From: Candidatus Campbellbacteria bacterium | GTDB taxonomy: Bacteria > Patescibacteriota > Minisyncoccia > Phycocordibacterales > JAXHMZ01 | Assembly (NCBI GenBank): GCA_034521025.1 | Contig: JAXHMZ010000004.1 | Span: 41,315-105,314 of the forward strand | Direction: 5' to 3' | Length of the DNA stretch: 64,000 nt | Shown: in pieces, positions 11,342 to 38,541 of the stretch | Position numbering within the stretch: position 1 is the first letter of the stretch | How the letters are laid out: every line of letters begins with the position of its first letter | Notes under the pieces: generated by a model | Told to the model about the DNA's origin: nothing | The model's database searches: none | Seen by the model: the letters and a program-made list of their open reading frames with translations, nothing else | Program-made: the position numbers and the translations under genes

Positions 11342-11372
11342 ATATACCAAAAACACTTATTTTAGCCGTTCT

Positions 11373-11402
11373 AAATGCTTCAATCTATAGATTGAAGCAT
11401 TT
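11373..11402. repeat. Perfect 30-bp palindrome AAATGCTTCAATCTATAGATTGAAGCATTT; copy 1 of 4.
   Basis: The sequence is perfectly self-complementary. It lies 30 bp after the tgt stop and immediately upstream of the uvrB promoter -35. Further copies are at 27971-28000, 29159-29188 and 32565-32594. Confidence 0.9.
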
Positions 11403-11407
11403 AGCTG

Positions 11408-23675: not shown

Positions 23676-24689
23676 ATGAGGAACGGTATCAAAAGACACG
23701 TTATAAGCTATCTGGCAATTGGACTTGCTGCTTTTGCCCTGCTCTTTTTCATAGCTCCTCAAAATGTAAGAGCAACAAGTGATCCACCACCAATGGTCAC
23801 CATAGAAGCCGAGTTAAATGATAATCTTTTTACACTGAAAAGAACTTGTTTGGATCAAAATTGTTTCTTTGTTCTTGAGGAAGATCAAACGGGTGATTTT
23901 TCTATAAAACGAGCTCACGACAAAGAAGATGAGTTCTCTATTCTTACTAGAGGAAGTGTATCGCGCGAAAACAATCGTATACGAATTCAACCTGATCCCT
24001 ATAGCATAAGGTACAAAGACGTTCCCTTTCGCGAAGACGCGTTAGTAGAAGCGTTGAAGGTGTTGATTCAAGATGATATTTCCGACATCAAACCAGTTTT
24101 ACTGCAAACATTTGAAGGATGGGCAAGAGTGGGAAGAGGGGCAAGCTTCACAGTTACTCCATATGAACCGAGCAAGGAAAGGGAACTTCAGAAAGACAAA
24201 AATAGACTTCTTGAGTGCTTCTTTAATGAGTACGAACGAAAAGGTGATTGGTTGATCATTTCAGAAGGAAATACTCGTGAGTACTGTTATCCGGATGGAA
24301 ATTTTAGTAGGTCGATTAACTACTCGCACTTTACGTATTTTCTTTTGACCAATATACACCAACTTCCTACCTATATTGGTCAATTACCTATTTTTCACCT
24401 TGTTATACTAATACTCATACTACTGGGCGTTGTAGGATTTATGTATCACCTCATCAGGAAAGGAAATTTTTGGCTTTTCTTGAAACCGAATAAAACCAAA
24501 GTAATTTTAGTAGTCGTATCAGGAATCATATTGACGGTCATATTCGCCGCTAAGTATATGCAACCAGGCCCTGCGATGTCCGTTGTTATTGGCGCGCGTA
24601 TAATAGATTATCTTATACAAATATATCTCCTTATCTGTGTGATCGGATATGTAATTTATAAGCTTAAGAATAGGCGGGAAACAAACTAA
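23676..24689 (+). CDS. Family member A of a paralogous 4-TM, 4-Cys surface protein family.
   Basis: It has a signal/TM helix, a PPP motif, CLDQNC, a second Cys pair (C...YCYPD) and three C-terminal TM helices. It shares FL(K/R)PNKTK...SGIILT...IDYL(I/V)(Q/E)IYLL(I/T)CVIGY with the genes at 28073 and 29268. Confidence 0.6.
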   Translation: MRNGIKRHVISYLAIGLAAFALLFFIAPQNVRATSDPPPMVTIEAELNDNLFTLKRTCLDQNCFFVLEEDQTGDFSIKRAHDKEDEFSILTRGSVSRENNRIRIQPDPYSIRYKDVPFREDALVEALKVLIQDDISDIKPVLLQTFEGWARVGRGASFTVTPYEPSKERELQKDKNRLLECFFNEYERKGDWLIISEGNTREYCYPDGNFSRSINYSHFTYFLLTNIHQLPTYIGQLPIFHLVILILILLGVVGFMYHLIRKGNFWLFLKPNKTKVILVVVSGIILTVIFAAKYMQPGPAMSVVIGARIIDYLIQIYLLICVIGYVIYKLKNRRETN

Positions 24690-24737
24690 TGTGGATATTT
24701 TGGATTCTAATTTTTCATAGTTTGCTATAATGGAGCA

Positions 24738-24899
24738 ATGAAGAAGAGTAAAAAGAATCTTTCCAGCAGTCTTCTATATATGCTTATTTTTACTCTTTTT
24801 GCTTCAGTGATGGCGCTTCTATTTCTAGGTATTGCACACAGAAACTATTCATTTACATCTACGGAGACGTATTATAATAAGGAAACCGCAGGCAGTTGA
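24738..24899 (+). CDS. Small (53-aa) predicted membrane protein, below the ORF-track threshold.
   Basis: ATG at 24738. It has a basic N-terminus and one hydrophobic helix (LLYMLIFTLFASVMALLFLGI). Confidence 0.25.
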   Translation: MKKSKKNLSSSLLYMLIFTLFASVMALLFLGIAHRNYSFTSTETYYNKETAGS

Positions 24900-24944
24900 A
24901 TTACAGCAGCTCTTAATTTTGTAATTTAGTATTAGTGTTGAAAT

Positions 24945-24979
24945 ATAAAAAAAGAGGGGGATCCATCGGATCCCCCTTC
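24945..24979 (-). terminator. Intrinsic terminator for a minus-strand transcript.
   Basis: Hairpin agggggatcc-atc-ggatccccct. On the minus strand it is followed by a U7 run (plus-strand A run at 24947-24953). Confidence 0.5.
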
Positions 24980-25262
24980 TGTGTCAGTTCGCACCAGCAA
25001 TAGAGTACTATATTTGTATCAAATCCTCCACGATACGGAAGATGCTCCCGCACCGCTTCAGCGGAACATGACTGCTCACCCCCTAAGCATTAAATGAGTT
25101 TGCGCTCTTACATTCTCAGTGTCGACGTGAGTATCAGTTGTTGGAGGTATTAAACAGTCCCAATTCTACTCCTTTCGACAAAAAAGGCTTTAAAGTACTC
25201 AGAGTCACTAATGCTCACCCGCAACTGTTTGTAGTATTAGTGACTCTAATGTTATATATAAT
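24980..25262 (-). ncRNA. Candidate ncRNA of about 300 nt with unknown identity.
   Basis: A minus-strand TTGACA-17/18-TATATA promoter lies at about 25256-25284, and the terminator is at 24945-24979. No ORF longer than about 10 codons occurs on that strand. A strong 5' hairpin (agagtcactaat...attagtgactct) and several internal hairpins are present. Confidence 0.3.
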
Positions 25263-25411
25263 ACAATACTTATATATTGTCAAATTCTTTAAGAGAATCG
25301 AGTGTATATTGCGTTGAAAGGGAAGGAGAAATCGAAACTGAGGAAAAGCGCGCGAATTTTCTACAGGTCAGATATTCGTCATTACCGCTAAGCATAGGCA
25401 CAGGGTATACA

Positions 25412-26371
25412 ATGTCGGTAACGAGATCTCTTTTTAATATCGTCGGCATATTAATAAGGAAGTTGCGTTCGCAAAGAGTCACAGATAATATAGACCCGAT
25501 GTATACAATTATACTTTTCTACAAATATATAACTATTGAAGATCCCGAAAAGGAACGGGATGAACAACGAGAGTTGTGTGAGAGACATGGACTTACCGGC
25601 CGCTTGATCGTGGCCAATGAGGGTATAAATGGAACTCTGGAAGGGCGTGAGCCAGATATCAAAAAATATATACAAGCACTAACCGAAGACGAACGATTTT
25701 CAGATATTGACTTTAAAACAAGTAAAGGTACCGGCGGGGCGTTTCCAAAACTTTCAGTAAAGGTAAGGTCGGAGATAGTATCTTCAAGACTGGGGAGTGG
25801 AGTGAATCCACAAGAAGATACGGGAACAAAGATCGATCCTGATGAGTTACATAGATGGTACGAGGAAGGCAGAGATTTTACGGTGATCGATATGCGTAAT
25901 GATTATGAGTTTGTTTCGGGTCATTTCCATAATTCGGTGGATCCGGGTATGCGCAATTTCCGTGATCTTCCAGAAAAAGCAAAAGAGCTTGAGCATTTAA
26001 AAGACAAGACCGTGGTTACAGTTTGTACTGGAGGCGTGCGTTGTGAAAAAGCTTCAGCATATCTAAAATCACAGGGATTTAGTAAAGTGCATCAACTCAA
26101 AGGTGGTCTTCATCGCTATATAGAAAAGTATCCGGCTGCGCACTTTAAAGGAGGATTGTATGTTTTTGATGGCAGGGTTGTTATGGAAACAGCTCCGGAC
26201 CAGGAAAGAGAGGTAGTAGGCAAGTGCCAGTTCTGTGGTGTTAATACGGAGAAGTATGCCGACGATGATTCTGTTACCCCTTCACGTCAGATCCTCTGCT
26301 GTGATAGTTGCTTTCAGGACCAAGGTAATTTGCGCAGAAATAAAGAGAGCCGAAAACAAACGAGTGCTTAG
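25412..26371 (+). CDS. trhO: Rhodanese-domain tRNA uridine(34) hydroxylase (TrhO/YceA, UPF0176).
   Basis: Motifs ILFYKY and ERHGLTGRLIVANEGINGTLEG are present. The rhodanese active Cys is in VCTGGVRCEKA. There is a C-terminal CxxC...CC..C. The start could be 25412 or 25499. The ORF-track extension to 25277 is probably not real. Confidence 0.7.
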   Translation: MSVTRSLFNIVGILIRKLRSQRVTDNIDPMYTIILFYKYITIEDPEKERDEQRELCERHGLTGRLIVANEGINGTLEGREPDIKKYIQALTEDERFSDIDFKTSKGTGGAFPKLSVKVRSEIVSSRLGSGVNPQEDTGTKIDPDELHRWYEEGRDFTVIDMRNDYEFVSGHFHNSVDPGMRNFRDLPEKAKELEHLKDKTVVTVCTGGVRCEKASAYLKSQGFSKVHQLKGGLHRYIEKYPAAHFKGGLYVFDGRVVMETAPDQEREVVGKCQFCGVNTEKYADDDSVTPSRQILCCDSCFQDQGNLRRNKESRKQTSA

Positions 26372-26443
26372 TTATAAACAGATGCTATTGTGCAATTCAA
26401 AAAACTTGGTGCTAGAATCAGATAAGCTAAATAGATTCAAGAT

Positions 26444-26977
26444 ATGGTAGAAAATGTAACCCTTTTATTATCTATACTTACGGTCGTCGCGCAGATCTTT
26501 ATTTTTTTCGCGATAGTTGAGTTAATCCGGACAAGGGGCAAAAAAAAGAATTCTATGATCTTGCGATTGGTTGATCGCACTCCTGTCTTGTATTCATTTT
26601 TTATTGCCGCCTTAGCAATGCTCGGTAGTTTGTTCTATTCTGAAATAGCCCAGTATGATCCGTGTGAGTTTTGTTGGTATCAACGTATTCTTATGTACCC
26701 CTTAGTCGTATTGTTTGGCCTAGCTCTCTTGCGACGTGACCGTAATATTCTCCCTTATGGTTTCATTCTTAGTATAATCGGCGCAATAATTGCCCTCTAT
26801 CATTATCTAATGCAACTGGGATTCATTGCGCCAACAACCTGCAGCGCTGTGGGTGTATCGGTCTCTTGTTCCGATTCGTTTACGGTGACGTTCGGATACA
26901 TAAGTATTCCGATGATGGCCCTGACGGCATTTGCATTAATTATTATATTTTCAGTAATTTCACAAAAAAATGACTAA
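26444..26977 (+). CDS. DsbB/BdbC-family disulfide bond formation protein B.
   Basis: It has four TM helices. The motif YDPCEFCWYQRILMYP matches the BdbC CxxC. A second Cys pair lies in a periplasmic loop. Confidence 0.7.
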   Translation: MVENVTLLLSILTVVAQIFIFFAIVELIRTRGKKKNSMILRLVDRTPVLYSFFIAALAMLGSLFYSEIAQYDPCEFCWYQRILMYPLVVLFGLALLRRDRNILPYGFILSIIGAIIALYHYLMQLGFIAPTTCSAVGVSVSCSDSFTVTFGYISIPMMALTAFALIIIFSVISQKND

Positions 26978-27416
26978 CTATCAAAAATGGGCGCTTACTA
27001 GTTTACGCGTAGGCCTCGGATGGCTCTTCTTCTATGCGGGTATTACTAAAATTTTCGATCCGACCTGGTCTGCAGGGGTATTTCTTAGCAATGCTTCGAC
27101 TTTCCCAGAAATGTACGAATTTTTCGCGCATCCTGACGTGTTGCCGATCGTTAATTTGCTCAATGAGTGGGGACTCACGTTGCTCGGTGTTTCGCTTATA
27201 ACCGGTGTACTTGTTCGGGTTTCCGCGCCGCTTGGAGTACTGTTGATGCTTCTCTACTATCTTGCTTCGCTCGACTTTCCGATGGTGGGAGAGCATTCGT
27301 ATATAGTCAATGATCACATAATCAAAGTGCTCGCTCTTTTGACCCTTGTTGCGTTTAACGCCGGACGATACAAAAGCCTTGGTACTGTTATACGAAAAGG
27401 TCTTAAAAAGAAATAG
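26970..27416 (+). CDS. DoxX-family membrane protein.
   Basis: The N-terminus is MTNYQKWALTSLRVGLGWLFFYAGITKIF. It has four TM helices and overlaps dsbB by 8 bp. Confidence 0.7.
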   Translation: MTNYQKWALTSLRVGLGWLFFYAGITKIFDPTWSAGVFLSNASTFPEMYEFFAHPDVLPIVNLLNEWGLTLLGVSLITGVLVRVSAPLGVLLMLLYYLASLDFPMVGEHSYIVNDHIIKVLALLTLVAFNAGRYKSLGTVIRKGLKKK

Positions 27417-27473
27417 AGGTTCTCTTATTTGTGCTCGTGCTTAATTTTTGTACTATGCATAGATAGTGCGTAG

Positions 27474-27546
27474 GGGCCATTAGCTCATTCGGTAGAGCGC
27501 ATCGCTGGCAGCGATGAGGTGACCGGTTCGATTCCGGTATGGTCCA
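27474..27546 (+). tRNA. tRNA-Ala (anticodon GGC).
   Basis: Acceptor GGGCCAT/ATGGTCC has a G3:U70 pair. D-arm is GCTC-ATTCGGTA-GAGC, anticodon loop CTGGCAG, T-arm ACCGG-TTCGATT-CCGGT. Confidence 0.8.
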
Positions 27547-27551
27547 CATTT

Positions 27552-27944
27552 ATGTTCGAAAATATGAACAGTGAAGGTGAAAACAGATCGACACCTGAGT
27601 TAGACAACCTACTAAAGCAAAGAGAAGAAGTCACTCGCCGTCTTTATGTAATGATGTTTGAAAATTTGGCGATATTTGGCGTGCCGGCTTTTGTGGCGCT
27701 CGTTGTTGGCTTGAAGTTGCGTGAGGAGTGGGGAAACATTGCTCTGTTTGCTTTGCTGGCTCTAGCTCTTGTTGTTTCTTGGTTGATCTTCTTCAGAAGA
27801 TATCGTTACTTTACCGGTGAGCTCGCCAAGCTAGAAACCGCGATCAAAAATGAAAGAAAAAGAGCCGGGATACCGGAACCGGAAGCGCCTGGCTACCCCG
27901 ACGAAGAAGAGGAAGAGAGCGACGAGGAAAAAGAAGAAGAATAA
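27552..27944 (+). CDS. Small two-TM membrane protein with an acidic C-tail.
   Basis: The ORF-track start at 27519 overlaps the tRNA, so ATG 27552 (or 27564) is more likely. The C-terminus is EEEEESDEEKEEE. Confidence 0.4.
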   Translation: MFENMNSEGENRSTPELDNLLKQREEVTRRLYVMMFENLAIFGVPAFVALVVGLKLREEWGNIALFALLALALVVSWLIFFRRYRYFTGELAKLETAIKNERKRAGIPEPEAPGYPDEEEEESDEEKEEE

Positions 27945-27970
27945 TAAAAATGACCAAATATAGCGATTCT

Positions 27971-28000
27971 AAATGCTTCAATCTATAGATTGAAGCATTT
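27971..28000. repeat. Palindrome copy 2 (identical to copy 1).
   Basis: AAATGCTTCAATCTATAGATTGAAGCATTT. It lies 26 bp after the upstream stop and 72 bp before the family-B start. Confidence 0.9.
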
Positions 28001-28072
28001 AATTGGTGGTTTGTAAGGTGTTTACTTCACTTTTGAGATTTTGTGATAAAGTTGACTTAAAGTTTTATAGTT

Positions 28073-29103
28073 ATGGCATACGTAAAAATTATAAAAACAT
28101 TAAGAAATTTTATAATCTATCCGGCTATAGTATTCGTGGTTCTCGGGATATCTCTTTATGTGGCTCCGCAAACTGTGGCAGCGATTAGTCCTCCTCCACC
28201 ACCAGAACCGGAAATTTATATAGAAGCTTCACTAGACGAAAACTTCTTTACACAAGAGACACAAGAGCGGGTCTGTTTGGATCAGGGCTGTACTTTTGTG
28301 TTAGAACCTGAACAAGATTCTGATGCCTATTACTTAAAAAAGGCTCACGAGCAAGGTCAGAAAGAAGAGCTTTCTTTACTGGGGATCGTGTCGCTTGAAG
28401 AGGGTTCCGTACTAATCACACCCAGTTCTTCACAGGAAGAGATTTCGCTAGATGAAAAAGCCCTTGTCGAGGCGTTAGATATGTTGATTGAAAATGACAT
28501 TTCTCCAATTGAATCTGATCTCTTACAAACACTTGAAAGATGGGCAGATTGGCAGTGGCAGATGGTGGTTATTCACTGTTGCCCACATACGAACAACAAG
28601 GGACAAGAGAACTCCAAAAGCAAAGAATAGGCTTTTTGATTTCATGTTATTACCCTGGGTACGAGCAAAGAGGAAGCTGGTTAATCACTATTGGAAACCA
28701 ACAGCGTGATTATTGTTCTGGTGGTCCCATGGATCACTCAAACTTTGCTCTTTATTTGTTGACCCATATTCCCGAACTACCAGTTACTTACCTCACTGGT
28801 CTAATTTTTGTACTGCTGGGCGCAGTGGTATTCATATATTATCTTGCCAGAAAAAATGAGCTCTGGTTCTTTCTAAGACCAAATAAAACTAAACTAATTA
28901 TAGTGATAATATCAGGGGCTATTCTCACATATCTACATATACCCTACATGCATTATTTCCCATATGATGTCCATCTAGATTTCCAAGAGCTTCTTTATAT
29001 TTTCGGCGCTTGGGTCATAGATTATCTCGTAGAAATATATCTCCTTACATGCGTGATCGGGTATGCGATGTACAGGCGCAGGATTAAGCGTACAACTAAT
29101 TAA
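28073..29103 (+). pseudogene. Family member B, disrupted by a frameshift near 28545-28560.
   Basis: Two overlapping ORFs (28073..28630 and 28540..29103) together align end to end with gene C. The frame change falls in a short direct repeat (tggcag tggcag), as if by slippage. Confidence 0.6.
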
Positions 29104-29158
29104 CTTTCACGGCTTCGTTGAATAACTTTGGAAGTTGTTCAACAAATATAGTGATCCT

Positions 29159-29188
29159 AAACGCTTCAATCTATAGATTGAAGCGTTT
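29159..29188. repeat. Palindrome copy 3 (variant AAACGC...GCGTTT).
   Basis: T>C in the left arm and the matching A>G in the right arm keep perfect dyad symmetry. The upstream ~55 bp are shared with copy 4. Confidence 0.9.
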
Positions 29189-29267
29189 ATTTGGTGTTTT
29201 GTGAGGTGTTTACTTCATTTTTTAGATTTTGTGGTAGCTTAAACTTAAGGTATTTTAATTGTAATAA

Positions 29268-30293
29268 GTGCAGAAAATGACAAAAACATCAAGGGGTTTT
29301 ATAGATTATCGTATAATCGGACTTTCTGCTTTTGTGTTGTTCTTCATTGTAGCTCCACAAACTGCGTCGGCCCTTAGTCCGCCGCCGGCGCCAAAGATTT
29401 ACATAGAAGCATCATTAGATGAAGGCCTTTTTACACAAGAGCAGATTTGTTTAGATCAAGGTTGTGCTTTCGTATTTGGCCCCGAGCAATCTTCTGATTT
29501 TTATTATATAAAGAGAGCTCACGAGCAGGATCAAGAAGAAGGCCTTTCTTTTTTTGGACAAGTATCGCTTGAAAAGAACTTTTTGCAGATTGAGCCTCCT
29601 ACCAGTCTCGAAAACAAAGATGTTCCTTTAGATGAAGCTGTGCTTGTTGATGCATTGGATGTGTTGATCGATGATGATATTTCTGACATCGAACCAATTC
29701 TATTACAAGCATTTAAAGAATGGACGGGGTCAAGGTACGGAGAAAGTCTCACTGTTGCACACCGTGAATCGGCCGAAGGGCGAGCACTAAAAGCATCGAA
29801 GAATACACTCGTTTTATGTAACTATATCGAATATCAACGAGAGGGAGATTGGTTGGTCACTCAAGGGAGCGTTGAGCGAAGCTACTGCTATCCAGACCAT
29901 AATACAATAGGTGTTTTTGGTCCACCGGATGTATCGATTCGCCATTCACACTTTGCGTTTTATTTACTGACTCATATGCACGAATTACCTATCTTTTACC
30001 TCGCTGGATTTATTCTCGTACTCCTGGGTGTTGCGAGGTTCATACATCGACGCATCAAGAGAGGGGAATTCTGGCTTTTTCTGAGACCGAATAAAACAAA
30101 AATAATTATACTGATCGTTTCCGGAATCATTTTGACTTACATATTAACTACAGAATATATGGAGCCGGGATTGGATGATGTGCGTTATATTCTCAGCACT
30201 TGGGTCATAGATTATCTTGTAGAAATATACCTCCTCACGTGCGTGGTCGGGTATGCGATGTATAAGCGAAGGATTGAGCGAGTAAGGAAATAA
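29268..30293 (+). CDS. Family member C (intact).
   Basis: It has a signal/TM helix, PPPAPKIYIEASLDE, CLDQGC, C..YCYPD and three C-terminal TM helices ending IDYLVEIYLLTCVVGYAMYKRR. Confidence 0.6.
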   Translation: MQKMTKTSRGFIDYRIIGLSAFVLFFIVAPQTASALSPPPAPKIYIEASLDEGLFTQEQICLDQGCAFVFGPEQSSDFYYIKRAHEQDQEEGLSFFGQVSLEKNFLQIEPPTSLENKDVPLDEAVLVDALDVLIDDDISDIEPILLQAFKEWTGSRYGESLTVAHRESAEGRALKASKNTLVLCNYIEYQREGDWLVTQGSVERSYCYPDHNTIGVFGPPDVSIRHSHFAFYLLTHMHELPIFYLAGFILVLLGVARFIHRRIKRGEFWLFLRPNKTKIIILIVSGIILTYILTTEYMEPGLDDVRYILSTWVIDYLVEIYLLTCVVGYAMYKRRIERVRK

Positions 30294-30786
30294 CTCGCGT
30301 CACTCAATAATGTTTGTTTTGTGCAAAAACATTGGAAGTAACGAGCTTGTATGATTATCAAGAATTCTCCAGTATCGTGGCAAGCTGAATCGCAAGAGCA
30401 CTTAAGATACCAATTAAAGATTTACCGTGAACATCACCTAACAAAAAGTTGTTAAATATTACACGAACCCCGAATTGTTTGAAAAAATTTCAAAAGAAAC
30501 GCAACAAAAAATGAGGGAGGGCAAAGGTCACATGGCTGCATCTGTGGAGGTACTGCGCAAATACCAAAACGAACTCCGCGATGCGCTCGGTGGTCCGCAG
30601 CAGTAATTCCAGCACTAGCGTAAGATAAAAGATTGTGGTATCGTCTCAGCAGAGAGGCGTCTTGGGGAGGACGTCTTTTCGTTTCTAGACGCAGTTACAG
30701 TACCAAGATGACTGTGACACTTGCACATTGACAGGGGAAGGAAGACAGAGGCAGGAAGAACAAATCCACCGAAAGGAGGTGAAATC

Positions 30787-32058
30787 ATGTACCGAACGCA
30801 AGTAGCTCGCGCCGCAATCGTTCTGTTTTGGATGACCTTAATGACGGTTGCGTTCGCGCAGCCATACGAGATTGTCCGGGCGGGCGACGAAAATCTGACG
30901 TTGCGCGTCGAGCGGGGGTTTACCCCGTGGGATTTCTGGGTGGCGAATGCCGACCGGAACACCTGCGGCTGGTCGGACTTCCGTCCGGCCGTAAACGCGC
31001 TCAACCCAAGCCATGTGGCGAGTGAGTTTCGCGCGATTGCGATCGACTCCGAATTCCGTGTGCCACAAGCGTGTGCTTCGGGCATAGTCAACGTGGCGCC
31101 AGCAGAAACGGATCTTGCACTGCTCGCAGAGAGCATCGATCGTTTCTCGGCGGCATTGGCCAATGCCGCGTCTCGGAACACGGTGAGCAGTGTAGAATTC
31201 GAGGAAATCGAGCAGCGCGTCAAGGGGGTTGAGGAGCGCATCGCTGAACTCGAAAACAACGATGAGCGGCTCAGCGGCCAAGTCGACGAGCTCTCCGCTT
31301 TCGTCGATGCGAGGTTCGCGAACCTCGCCCGAGAGCGCGACACCGGCGTGTTTTGGCAGTGGCCATATCGCTGGTGGGTGAGGGTTCTTATCTTTTTTGT
31401 GATCCTCGCGATTGTGGTTGCGCTACTCTACTACATAGAGCGCATCCGGAATGAGCGAAATCGCCAAAAAGGAAACCCTCCTGACCCGAAGTCGCGTATC
31501 ACGAAGATGCAGGATGAAATAGCCCGGCTTCGTGATAAAAATCAAGAGCTTCGAGACGAAGCTGTGGCCTACAAAGGAGCTCGCGACAAACTTCGCGAAG
31601 AAGTTGCGTTACTCAGAAATACGATCGAACGGCATAATGAAGAAAGCAACAAAATCCGCGAAGAACGCGATCGCGAAGTTGAAGCGCTTCGCGAAGAAGT
31701 GGATCGGCTTAGCAGGCAGGCGAAAGCATACCCCGAGGGGCATGTCGAGCGCGTGACAGTGCAGAACAAAACAACAGGAGGGGAAAAGGCCATGCTGTTA
31801 AAGCACGAACCTCCATATGTCACGGTATTCGACACCGACGGGAATCACATTAGTGGTCCCATGCACCGCAAAACGGCGATCAAACGCGCCGAAGAGAGCG
31901 AAGAAGAATCTGCTCATGCTAGAGGTGAGGTCGTCGAATCCGAGAAAACGTCAGAGGGGTCTTCCAAGAAAGGCAATCCCTCAAAAACACGCCGGGGCGG
32001 CAGACACGCCCATCGACGAAGGCAAAATCGCAACAAGAAGGACAAAGTGACGTCGTAG
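30787..32058 (+). CDS. Island-encoded bitopic membrane protein with a signal peptide, an ectodomain of about 190 aa, a TM helix and an R/E-rich cytoplasmic coiled coil with a basic tail.
   Basis: A GGAGGTG RBS lies 7 nt before ATG 30787. The order is signal peptide, TM helix VLIFFVILAIVVALLYYI, then heptad-like repeats (ARLRDKNQELRDEA...EALREEVDRLSRQ). The minus-strand ORFs 30615..31343 and 30838..31281 are GC-rich shadows. Confidence 0.6.
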   Translation: MYRTQVARAAIVLFWMTLMTVAFAQPYEIVRAGDENLTLRVERGFTPWDFWVANADRNTCGWSDFRPAVNALNPSHVASEFRAIAIDSEFRVPQACASGIVNVAPAETDLALLAESIDRFSAALANAASRNTVSSVEFEEIEQRVKGVEERIAELENNDERLSGQVDELSAFVDARFANLARERDTGVFWQWPYRWWVRVLIFFVILAIVVALLYYIERIRNERNRQKGNPPDPKSRITKMQDEIARLRDKNQELRDEAVAYKGARDKLREEVALLRNTIERHNEESNKIREERDREVEALREEVDRLSRQAKAYPEGHVERVTVQNKTTGGEKAMLLKHEPPYVTVFDTDGNHISGPMHRKTAIKRAEESEEESAHARGEVVESEKTSEGSSKKGNPSKTRRGGRHAHRRRQNRNKKDKVTS

Positions 32059-32204
32059 CTATACTCGACCAGTTGAAGCTTCAAGTGTGTCACACTTGTT
32101 GAGCGCCTGGTGTAGGTTGATGCTCCTGCTCATGTTGTAGCAGTAGAGCGCCCGTGGAGAGTAAACAGTTATCGACGTGCTTGATACATTTCTTCCCCAC
32201 CCCT

Positions 32205-32238
32205 GACTCCGCGGTCTCCCCGCCGCGGAGTTTTTTTA
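32205..32238 (+). terminator. Rho-independent terminator ending the island gene.
   Basis: ctccgcgg-tctccccg-ccgcggag followed by T7. Confidence 0.7.
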
Positions 32239-32282
32239 TACGTCAGCAAATTGATACACTTATACATATGGAAGAAAGACCT

Positions 32283-32508
32283 ACGTCATACCGATTGCGC
32301 GCACTGCTGGTGACTTTTATCGTTGTACTGATTGTTTCCGGAATCATTTTGAGTGCATATTAACTACAGAATATATGGAGCCGGGTTTCGATGATGTGCG
32401 TTATATTCTTAGCACTTGGATGATAGATTATCTTGTAGAAATCTATCTCCTTACGTGTGTGATCGGGTATGCGATGTACAGGCGCAGGATTAAGCGTACA
32501 ACTAATTA
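32283..32508 (+). pseudogene. 3' remnant (family member D) of a 4-TM family gene. It is a mosaic of C-like and B-like sequence and has an internal frameshift.
   Basis: 32283-32460 is nearly identical to the gene C 3' end, with a 1-nt indel that creates the stop at 32361. 32460-32508 and the following ~90 bp match the gene B 3' end and its downstream flank. Confidence 0.55.
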
Positions 32509-32564
32509 ACTTTCACGGCTTCGTTGAATAACTTCGGAAGTTGCTCAACAAATATAGGGATCCT

Positions 32565-32594
32565 AAACGCTTCAATCTATAGATTGAAGCGTTT
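32565..32594. repeat. Palindrome copy 4 (AAACGC...GCGTTT variant), 65 bp upstream of the atpB ATG.
   Basis: Identical to copy 3, including the flanking sequence. Confidence 0.9.
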
Positions 32595-32659
32595 ATTTAT
32601 TGAATAGTTTATCAGTTCTGCTTGCCCAAAGCGCTCTGCCGCGGTATCCTGAAGCGCGT

Positions 32660-34745: not shown

Positions 34746-36239
34746 ATGAAGATAGATACACTAATAAAAGAATTAAATCAACGCATCGATAAAGCTGAAA
34801 TAGATTCCGATGTAGAAGAAGTTGGAACGGTAGCAGAGGTGCATGACGGGATCGCTAGAATTTCCGGCTTGTCGGCCGTAGAATCTTCTGAAATGCTTTT
34901 GTTCCCCGGTGGAGTGATGGGTCTTGCTCTAAACCTGGAAGAAGACGCAGTGGGTTCAATCATCATCGGAGACGCGAGCGGGATCAAAGAAGGTGACACA
35001 GTAAAAAGAACTAAAAATATCCTTTCCATTCCTGTCGGCGAAAAAATGATCGGGAGAGTTATAAACCCACTAGGAGATCCGCTCGACGGCAAGGGTGACA
35101 TAGAATCAAGGGACAACTATCTTCTTGAGAAAAAGGCCCCCGGAGTGATGGAGCGAGAGCCTGTCTCAGAGCCTGTGCAAACCGGAATAAAAGCAATAGA
35201 CGCGATGATACCGGTTGGCAGAGGACAGCGTGAGCTCATCATCGGTGACCGTCAGACAGGGAAAACGACAGTGGCGGTGGATACGATACTAAATCAAAAA
35301 GGCAAGGATCTGATTTGTATTTATGTTGCCGTCAATCAAAAACAATCAAAAGTTGCCAGAGTGGTCAAAACCCTCGAAGAAAATGGAGCACTTGAGTACA
35401 CCACTGTAGTTTTAGCCGGCGCCTCTGATGGTCCTGCTCTTTCTTATCTTGCTCCATACGCCGGCGCTTCACTGGGAGAGTATTTTATGGATCAAGGCAA
35501 AGATGTGTTGGTAGTATTTGACGACCTGTCAAAACATGCTGCTTCTTATCGAGAGATCTCACTCTTATTAAGGCGCCCTCCCGGACGAGAGGCATATCCG
35601 GGTGACGTGTTTTATATTCACTCTAGATTATTGGAACGAGCCGCCAAGAGAGACAAAGAACACGGAGGTGGATCAATGACCGCTCTACCTATAATCGAGA
35701 CGCAGGCGGGGGATATTTCTTCGTACATTCCTACTAACGTTATTTCTATAACAGATGGACAAATTTTCCTTGAGACCGGGCTGTTTTATCGAGGCGTACG
35801 TCCGGCTATAAATATTGGAAACTCGGTTTCTCGTGTCGGGGGTTCGGCGCAGATCAAGTCAATGAAGAAAGTATCCGGACGAATGAAATTAGACCTTGCT
35901 CAATATAGAGAACTGGAGTCTTTTTCTCAATTTGCATCAGACTTGGATCAGGAAACAAAACAATCACTCGATAGGGGTCAACGAATTGTAGAGCTTTTAA
36001 AACAACCAGCTAACAGGCCTGTGCCCGTAGGAATTCAGATCGCTCTTGTCTACGCCGTAAACTCTGGCTTTCTTGACGAGGTTCCTATCCAGGAAATTTC
36101 TAAATGGGAAAAAGATCTGTGGTTGTATCTCGAATCGTCCCACGCTGATCTATTGGATAAATTGGTAGATGGTTGGGACGATGAAACAGAGGAATCTCTA
36201 AAGCAAGCGCTTTATAAATTTGAGAAAACTCGGACTTAA
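34746..36239 (+). CDS. atpA: F0F1 ATP synthase subunit alpha.
   Basis: Walker A GDRQTGKT is present, along with motifs [14 protein letters not shown] and DDLSKHA. Confidence 0.95.
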
Positions 36240-36244
36240 TTGAT

Positions 36245-38541
<2,297 letters not shown>

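Follow-up and report, generated by a model that had tools for sequence, protein, structure and literature searches.

Does a cluster of related envelope-protein genes, one of them frameshifted and another reduced to a 3' fragment, represent a programmed device for varying the cell surface, or an ordinary family of paralogs in decay? The question is raised by a locus in a metagenome-assembled genome (MAG) of Candidatus Campbellbacteria (candidate phyla radiation, CPR/Patescibacteria; locus tags U5L75_), which was examined within a 64-kb window (the whole stretch of DNA that was analysed) of a 166-kb contig. The window holds three full-length paralogs (A, B and C) and one fragment (D) of an uncharacterised envelope protein. 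Apart from the start of D, all four lie where a first-pass annotation, made from the sequence alone, had placed them (B with its frameshift), and that annotation had likened the locus to cassette-based surface-variation systems operating by gene conversion. The gene conversion is borne out, in the form of one tract of ~150 nt shared by B and D; a programmed variation device is not supported, and a low-level mechanism of the same kind is without positive support. The favoured reading (rough probability 0.65) is a lineage-specific, partly decayed paralog cluster, which would have arisen by tandem duplication at a palindromic terminator repeat and subsequently decayed.

The paralogs and the B/D conversion tract

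The members of the cluster and the two sides of the tract are as follows (TM, transmembrane; ORF, open reading frame; HMM, hidden Markov model).

23676–24689, + strand: paralog A, intact, 337 aa (ORF and translation; family HMM, E = 6.5e-80)
28073–29103, + strand: paralog B, frame broken, present as two overlapping ORFs (28073–28630 and 28540–29103)
29268–30293, + strand: paralog C, intact, 341 aa from a GTG start (NCBI U5L75_01875, 338 aa from the ATG at 29277)
32319–32509, + strand: fragment D, a 3' fragment comprising ~63 terminal codons of a family gene, for TM3, a loop, TM4 and a basic tail, stop codon included
29041–29189, + strand: B side of the conversion tract (coding tail, 54-nt flank and hairpin), 144/149 identical to 32447–32595
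32447–32598, + strand: D side of the conversion tract, the similarity stopping just past the hairpin and immediately before atpB (32600)

The signature of recombination is concentrated in D. Its homology to the family begins at ~32319–32323, and not at 32283 as first annotated, and runs to a stop codon at 32507–32509; with a 1-nt deletion of its own near 32353, it is doubly defective (truncated and frameshifted). It aligns with residues ~277–341 of C, i.e. TM3, the short loop, TM4 and the cytoplasmic tail, and carries no ectodomain sequence. The mosaic structure described for it earlier holds, with D being C-like over 32319–32434 (90%) and B-like over 32446–32509 (97%), the likeness to B continuing through the flank to 32598. 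To the left of the breakpoint at 32434/32446, 33 informative coding sites are C-like and 2 B-like, while to the right 1 is C-like and 13 are B-like (max-chi2 35.8, 0/100,000 permutations; Fisher p = 5e-9).

Pairwise comparison places the exchange between B and D. These two agree at 61/63 positions of the coding tail, 51/54 of the flank and 32/32 of the hairpin, including an identical run of ~75 nt, and their identity of 97% over 149 nt compares with 62% just upstream. C matches D at 113/125 positions just upstream (12 differences plus the indel of D) but at only 50/63 in the tail. The near-identity of 3' ends and downstream flanks that had been ascribed to B, C and D alike is therefore a property of B and D: B and C are only 71% identical over their last 156 nt, and the downstream flank of C resembles those of B and D no better than shuffled sequence does. 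Since the 149 nt at 97% identity stand amid old and diverged paralogs, the tract points to recent ectopic gene conversion or an equivalent recombination. Within the same region, a 31-codon ORF starting from an ATG upstream of the D frameshift (32268–32363; MEERPTSYRLRALLVTFIVVLIVSGIILSAY) encodes a single TM helix, partly a remnant of TM3, and is probably not meaningful.

The age of the paralogs is evident from an amino-acid identity of 47–54% (47% between A and C) and a nucleotide identity of 44–73% in 30-codon windows. Where the same amino acid is encoded, about half of the codons differ synonymously, placing synonymous sites near saturation, and this saturation in the ectodomains argues against any recent exchange there. 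In the last TM helix, B and C show fewer synonymous differences (6/23, vs 73/150 elsewhere), a weak signal. The common architecture described in the first-pass annotation is retained throughout: an N-terminal hydrophobic helix with an A-x-A-type site, a proline-rich stretch, the CLDQxC motif and a second Cys pair (C184/C207 in C) within an ectodomain of ~200 aa, and three C-terminal TM helices ending in IDYLVEIYLLTCV(I/V)GYAMY. A is a dispersed copy, its flanks unrelated to those of B and C. The proteins C and A are identical to NCBI U5L75_01875 and U5L75_01840, respectively, and both are inferred to be functional copies.

The frame of B is broken by a 1-nt deletion after 28545 (TGGGC^AGA). 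Restoring the base yields W-A-R as in A (...ERWARLAV... in restored B, ...EGWARVG... in A), and the restored protein can be aligned over its full length with A and C and has retained the conserved residues of the family; B is thus either a pseudogene or the product of a MAG consensus error. The frameshift site (TGGGCAGATTGGCAG, around 28545) has no short repeat and no slippery heptamer, and no run of at least 4 identical bases occurs in 28500–28600. Slipped-strand phase variation and programmed frameshifting at B were ruled out by this reading of the site. The ATG that opens the second frame (28540–29103, 187 aa) coincides with the frameshift site. Should the frameshift be genuine, separate translation of both halves of B is conceivable, with the C-terminal product then devoid of a signal peptide.

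As the window comes from a MAG, an assembly artefact has to be weighed at this point. The frameshift of B might be a consensus error, and the B-like end of D, or the join of C, the DNA that follows it and D, might be chimeric in a mixed-strain assembly. Such an origin would suit the fully open, conserved downstream frame of B, and the ~75-nt run common to B and D is long enough to mislead a short-read assembler. Nevertheless, D is distinct from both of its relatives (by the 12 differences from C and an indel of its own, and by 5 differences from B over 149 nt) and therefore does not represent a collapsed repeat, the frameshift lies outside any homopolymer run, and the 166-kb contig runs coherently into the ATP synthase operon, leaving an artefact, even in part, improbable.

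Terminator-like palindromes, spacers and the GC-rich block

The origin of the cluster is best approached through the non-coding DNA between its members and the block that separates C from D.

27970–28001, no strand: palindrome upstream of B (-19.3 kcal/mol, z = -5.4)
29158–29189, no strand: palindrome between B and C, in the hybrid B–C spacer
32564–32595, no strand: palindrome after D, directly upstream of atpB, the same 32-nt repeat
28002–28072, + strand: upstream region of B, containing a candidate promoter and shared with that of C (29190–29267; identity ~88% in the first 48 nt)
30294–32318, + strand: block separating C from D (GC 0.55), with a GC-rich gene that has its own ribosome-binding site and a GC-rich terminator

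What had been annotated as flanking repeats is one 32-nt perfect palindrome, TAAA(T/C)GCTTCAATCTATAGATTGAAGC(A/G)TTTA. Its fold is a hairpin of 14 bp (-18.7 to -21.8 kcal/mol, z about -5) with a T-rich run behind it, and the two variant positions change together (A-U to G-C), so that pairing is preserved. It has the appearance of a terminator hairpin, but a binding site for a dimeric protein or a small mobile repeat would be equally possible. The repeat is not specific to the locus; a fourth copy (11372–11403) occupies an unrelated site between tgt and uvrB.

The spacer between B and C is a hybrid, its left part being like the spacer after D (51/54) and its right part like the spacer before B (~88% over 48 nt), with the hairpin as the joint. 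This can be read as the footprint expected of tandem duplication by unequal recombination at two hairpins that flanked a single gene. The upstream region of B contains a -35/-10-like site at 28043–28071, and B and C each follow a terminator hairpin and a conserved stretch that may contain a promoter; neither therefore resembles a promoterless silent cassette, and both look, from their upstream sequences, like independent transcription units.

In the history proposed here, a single ancestral gene would have lain ahead of the ATP synthase operon, between two of the 32-nt palindromic terminator hairpins. Unequal recombination at these would have generated a tandem array, which would account for the hybrid spacer, and the copies would then have diverged to about 50% amino-acid identity. 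The last member, most likely a third copy sister to C, would have lost its 5' ~80% and its upstream spacer to a ~2-kb insertion or substitution of foreign composition, leaving D. A single ectopic gene conversion of ~150 nt would have made B and D alike in their 3' ends and flanks, and B would later have gained its 1-nt deletion, unless the MAG consensus is wrong at that point.

The DNA of foreign composition between C and D, absent from the first-pass annotation, contains one GC-rich gene (30787–32058), whose product combines a coiled coil and a single TM helix with a signal peptide and an extracytoplasmic part. The gene is equipped with a Shine-Dalgarno sequence of its own and, at 32205–32232, a terminator, and Pfam-type searches assigned it to no family. 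Its GC content at third codon positions is 0.62, vs 0.35–0.43 in the neighbouring genes. The shift in composition starts near 30550, and the 3' end of C and the first ~250 nt after it have a host-like low GC (0.36–0.42). The block yielded no integrase and no plasmid match, and its phage-family matches were weak and of coiled-coil type only. The sole detectable homolog of the gene (P0097, 38% identity) is on a 1.8-kb contig (L016, of which 1–1660 matches 30460–32240 of the window).

Several features of that contig bear on the extent of the block. Non-coding DNA is homologous on both sides of the gene (30554–30692 of the window upstream, 31979–32129 downstream), and the conserved downstream part includes ~70 non-coding nt that lie between stop codon and terminator. 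In both organisms the conserved upstream stretch is interrupted by stop codons; it may represent what is left of a gene, or a non-coding element. The homolog directly precedes ychF, which in the window is 8.9 kb further downstream, past D and the ATP synthase operon.

The block is read as horizontally acquired or translocated DNA, which either replaced most of the last array member or displaced the 3' end of C. The latter possibility would make D the original 3' end of C: incoming DNA carrying a family 3' end and the GC-rich gene would have recombined within C, by Campbell-type or homology-assisted insertion, and supplied it with a surrogate end, in the manner of integrative elements whose targets are gene 3' ends. 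A single event would then account at once for the duplicated end, the inserted DNA and the missing hairpin downstream of C. The block of foreign composition is indeed flanked by direct repeats of the 3' part of the gene (the 113/125 match of C and D), D runs directly into the array's native terminal flank and hairpin, and the tail and downstream flank of C are of non-native type. However, no integrase or recombinase was found in the block or among the Pfam-scanned ORFs of the window, the B/D conversion is still needed for the 97% identical tail, and the supposedly imported end of C, together with the next 250 nt, has the GC content of the host (the shift coming only near 30550). This host-like composition favours the truncated third copy as the origin of D, and displacement of the end of C is considered unlikely.

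Evidence bearing on a surface-variation system

Antigenic variation by segmental gene conversion is known from Neisseria pilE/pilS, Borrelia vlsE/vls, Anaplasma msp2, Treponema tprK and Mycoplasma genitalium mgpB/MgPar, systems which keep many promoterless donors covering the variable exposed region, plus a single expression site. Transferred to the window, such a system would have C or B as the expression site, with D and the frameshifted B as silent donors copied segmentally. The attraction of this idea is plain, as the locus combines paralogs of divergent ectodomains with one truncated and one frameshifted copy, displays one conversion tract with a sharp breakpoint, and has shared flanks that could guide recombination; moreover, the organism belongs to a group regarded as living attached to other cells, a way of life in which a variable surface could be of advantage. 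Like loci of the pilE/pilS type, it has clustered envelope-protein paralogs, a truncated non-expressible copy and a detectable recombination tract. Unlike them, the window has one fragment, consisting of conserved membrane helices, its exchange is confined to the conserved 3' end and flank, and its full-length copies resemble independent transcription units.

The sole fragment comprises TM3–TM4 and the cytoplasmic tail, the most conserved and non-exposed part of the protein, and so could not diversify the surface; likewise, a conversion tract in a conserved region and non-coding flank would bring about almost no surface change, and the synonymous divergence of the ectodomains is saturated. B and C each possess an upstream hairpin and conserved stretch, and no donor archive was found: tblastn and family-HMM searches over the 64-kb window returned only A, B, C and the one fragment D, while the deposited proteins of the genome include only A, C and the N-terminal half of B, with no further copies.

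The relatives offer the same picture. The family is single-copy and fragment-free, within up to +/-10 kb, at 10/10 distinct relatives' loci (bacteria, including Taylorbacteria, and archaea), and the window is the sole case seen with more than one family copy per locus. The first-pass annotation had named a single-copy, syntenic family without cassette fragments, together with the absence of a recombination signal, as the outcome that would speak against variation. The single copies and the freedom from fragments were found, but the neighbourhoods of the ten loci are mutually unrelated and not syntenic, and one recombination signal does exist. Taken with the point that the only fragment and the only tract avoid the exposed domain, this makes programmed cassette variation highly improbable.

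Other known mechanisms of variation fare no better. No recombinase, integrase, invertase or reverse transcriptase was detected by Pfam among the locus genes and 30 further ORFs of at least 180 aa (tgt, uvrB, uvrC, ddl and two ATP synthase genes being identified by reading only, and the minus-strand ORF 36100–36723 left out); since 8 of the scanned ORFs had no Pfam match at all, the absence of a recombinase or reverse transcriptase is not absolute. No inverted repeats bracket a segment, the only ones being the self-complementary 32-nt palindromes, all copies of which are direct. The differences among B, C and D are not base-specific, with no adenine-specific template/variable pattern. Integron, diversity-generating retroelement and invertase readings were rejected, neither enzymes nor suitable repeats having been found. 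Nothing of relevance emerged when the literature was searched for variation systems in CPR bacteria.

Closer parallels are to be found in the concerted evolution, or ectopic conversion, of ordinary paralogs, as in the babA/babB 3' regions of Helicobacter pylori and the duplicated tuf genes. The locus shares with these a short homogenised tract (~150 nt, 97%) in old, diverged paralogs, bounded by the end of the shared flank; it differs in that there is no sign of expression or function switching here and one partner is a dead fragment. The layout of hairpin, gene, hairpin, gene and so forth up to a final hairpin, with a hybrid middle spacer, further recalls tandem amplification at terminator palindromes or at palindromes like the repetitive extragenic palindromic (REP) type. 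Unlike a fresh amplification, the duplication here is old, with gene bodies at ~50% amino-acid identity, and the role of the palindrome is putative. The locus is in this sense ordinary, a textbook-style case of birth-and-death evolution (duplication at a repeat, foreign insertion, pseudogenisation and one ectopic conversion tract), and the unsupported reading of antigenic variation in a CPR bacterium is removed.

A decayed tandem array nevertheless has a number of points to contend with. The non-coding flanks, at 88–97% identity beside genes at 60–70%, require conversion or selection, and such flank identity implies active recombination at the locus, as a variation system would also need. The frame of B is open for 187 codons past the frameshift, with all conserved residues, so that B may be functional in the real genome. 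Around the block, the junctions (30294–30470 and 32233–32322) match spacers and family genes no better than shuffled sequence does, and so favour neither of the two origins of D (third copy vs displaced end of C) nor any one order of events. Public metagenome contigs, scanned with family peptides, provided no relative for strain-level comparison. Finally, the putative function of the protein is read from its architecture, and neither a conserved gene neighbourhood nor a structural relative was found. Two additional searches for close relatives were equally unproductive: a 20-nt family DNA pattern gave 7 chance matches in public metagenome contigs, none with a family gene, and a search for atpB synteny in a collection of species-representative genomes retrieved only distant genomes (29–36% identical).

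The protein family and the setting of the locus

Beyond the window, an exhaustive profile search detected 93 cluster representatives of the family at E < 1e-3, and 36 at E < 1e-10, mostly of ~300 aa; named members come from Candidatus Taylorbacteria, Woesearchaeota and other archaeal MAGs, and Anaerolineales (e.g. MSU56031.1, MBI2547881.1 and MBN2501340.1). Word-indexed homolog searches with C or with the family alignment returned essentially just the proteins of this genome, and comparison of the family with Pfam, NCBIfam, PHROGs and PDB sequences gave zero matches. Shared across the family are a full-length profile match, the invariant Cys pair, GxW and RxYC motifs, an FxxP cytoplasmic loop and the C-terminal three-helix anchor. 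C184 and C207 are invariant, G193, W195, Y206, F229, P274 and Y321 near-invariant, and all of them are present in A, B and C.

Cysteines are gained and lost in pairs across the family (alignment columns 53/288, 72/185, 86/91 and 252/276), the pairs being the first post-signal residue with the Cys of ‘GGMCP’, a clade-specific pair, the CLDxxC pair and the invariant pair. From this co-variation, two to four disulfides are predicted, as expected of an exported domain. The copies in the window lack the N-terminal Cys and the ‘GGMCP’ Cys, which most members carry together. In most members, the Cys right after the A-x-A site is lipobox-like, yet a signal-peptidase-I site with a disulfide partner fits better.

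The AlphaFold2 model of C (mean predicted local distance difference test, pLDDT, 84.9) comprises a helix at 9–28, an alpha/beta ectodomain at 44–235 and TM helices at 242–264, 276–297 and 305–340. The ectodomain is modelled with confidence and has no fold relative in a PDB structure search. The protein would accordingly be made up of a signal peptide, an alpha/beta ectodomain of ~200 aa with two predicted disulfides (C61–C66 in CLDQxC, and C184–C207), a three-helix anchor and a basic cytoplasmic tail. Judged by sequence and model, it is interpreted here as a cell-surface module that binds or senses and has no enzymatic role.

The patchy distribution across domains suggests horizontal spread among co-occurring small-celled anaerobes. 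Among the loci of relatives, the archaeal ones (L011–L013 and L024–L026) have the family gene beside MCM, TBP, TFIIB, PCNA and histone genes; L006 and L008–L010 are CPR-like, and L007 belongs to an organism with a full chemotaxis operon, every locus having a different neighbourhood. The family, small and scattered (CPR bacteria, archaea and Chloroflexota) and predicted to be exported, disulfide-bonded and membrane-anchored, is mildly useful in its own right: having no database model, and an ectodomain without a PDB relative, it could be considered for a Pfam entry and for structural or functional studies on the cell surface of ultra-small symbionts. A bolder view, quite unlikely at present, is that it represents an undescribed fold of a disulfide-stabilised, membrane-anchored surface receptor of CPR bacteria, DPANN-type archaea and a few other anaerobes, whose expansion in Campbellbacteria, given the divergent ectodomains and the recombination at conserved 3' ends, could have served to diversify the specificity of contact with a partner or host. 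If true, the locus would exemplify an early stage of low-copy, recombination-assisted surface diversification in an episymbiont.

As regards the setting, nearly all genes of the window are on the + strand, and its GC content is ~41%. The order on the 5' side of the array is uvrC, ddl, tRNA-Ala, a gene for a secreted hypothetical protein, A, a rhodanese-family gene, DsbB, DoxX, tRNA-Ala and a gene for a small membrane protein, followed by B, C, the GC-rich gene, D and the ATP synthase operon (first gene atpB, 32600). One further feature belongs to this context only.

26444–27416, + strand: DsbB-like and DoxX genes, between A and B

The presence of this pair, noted in the first-pass annotation, is confirmed by Pfam (DsbB, 26444–26977, PF02600, E = 3.5e-17; DoxX, 26970–27416, PF07681, E = 3.8e-8). 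Its proposed link to disulfide-bonded exported proteins is plausible, if circumstantial, and fits the paired co-variation of cysteines.

An Rfam scan of the window gave nothing beyond the two tRNA-Ala genes. One of these, tRNA-Ala(GGC) at 27474–27547, overlaps the start of a listed ORF (27519–27944), the true start of which is probably the ATG at 27558. An AtpI/AtpZ-like role was suspected for the 27558–27944 protein, but it matched no family. Read from 27558, the ORF, which lies shortly before the paralog array and the ATP synthase operon, specifies a small protein with two TM helices and an acidic tail.

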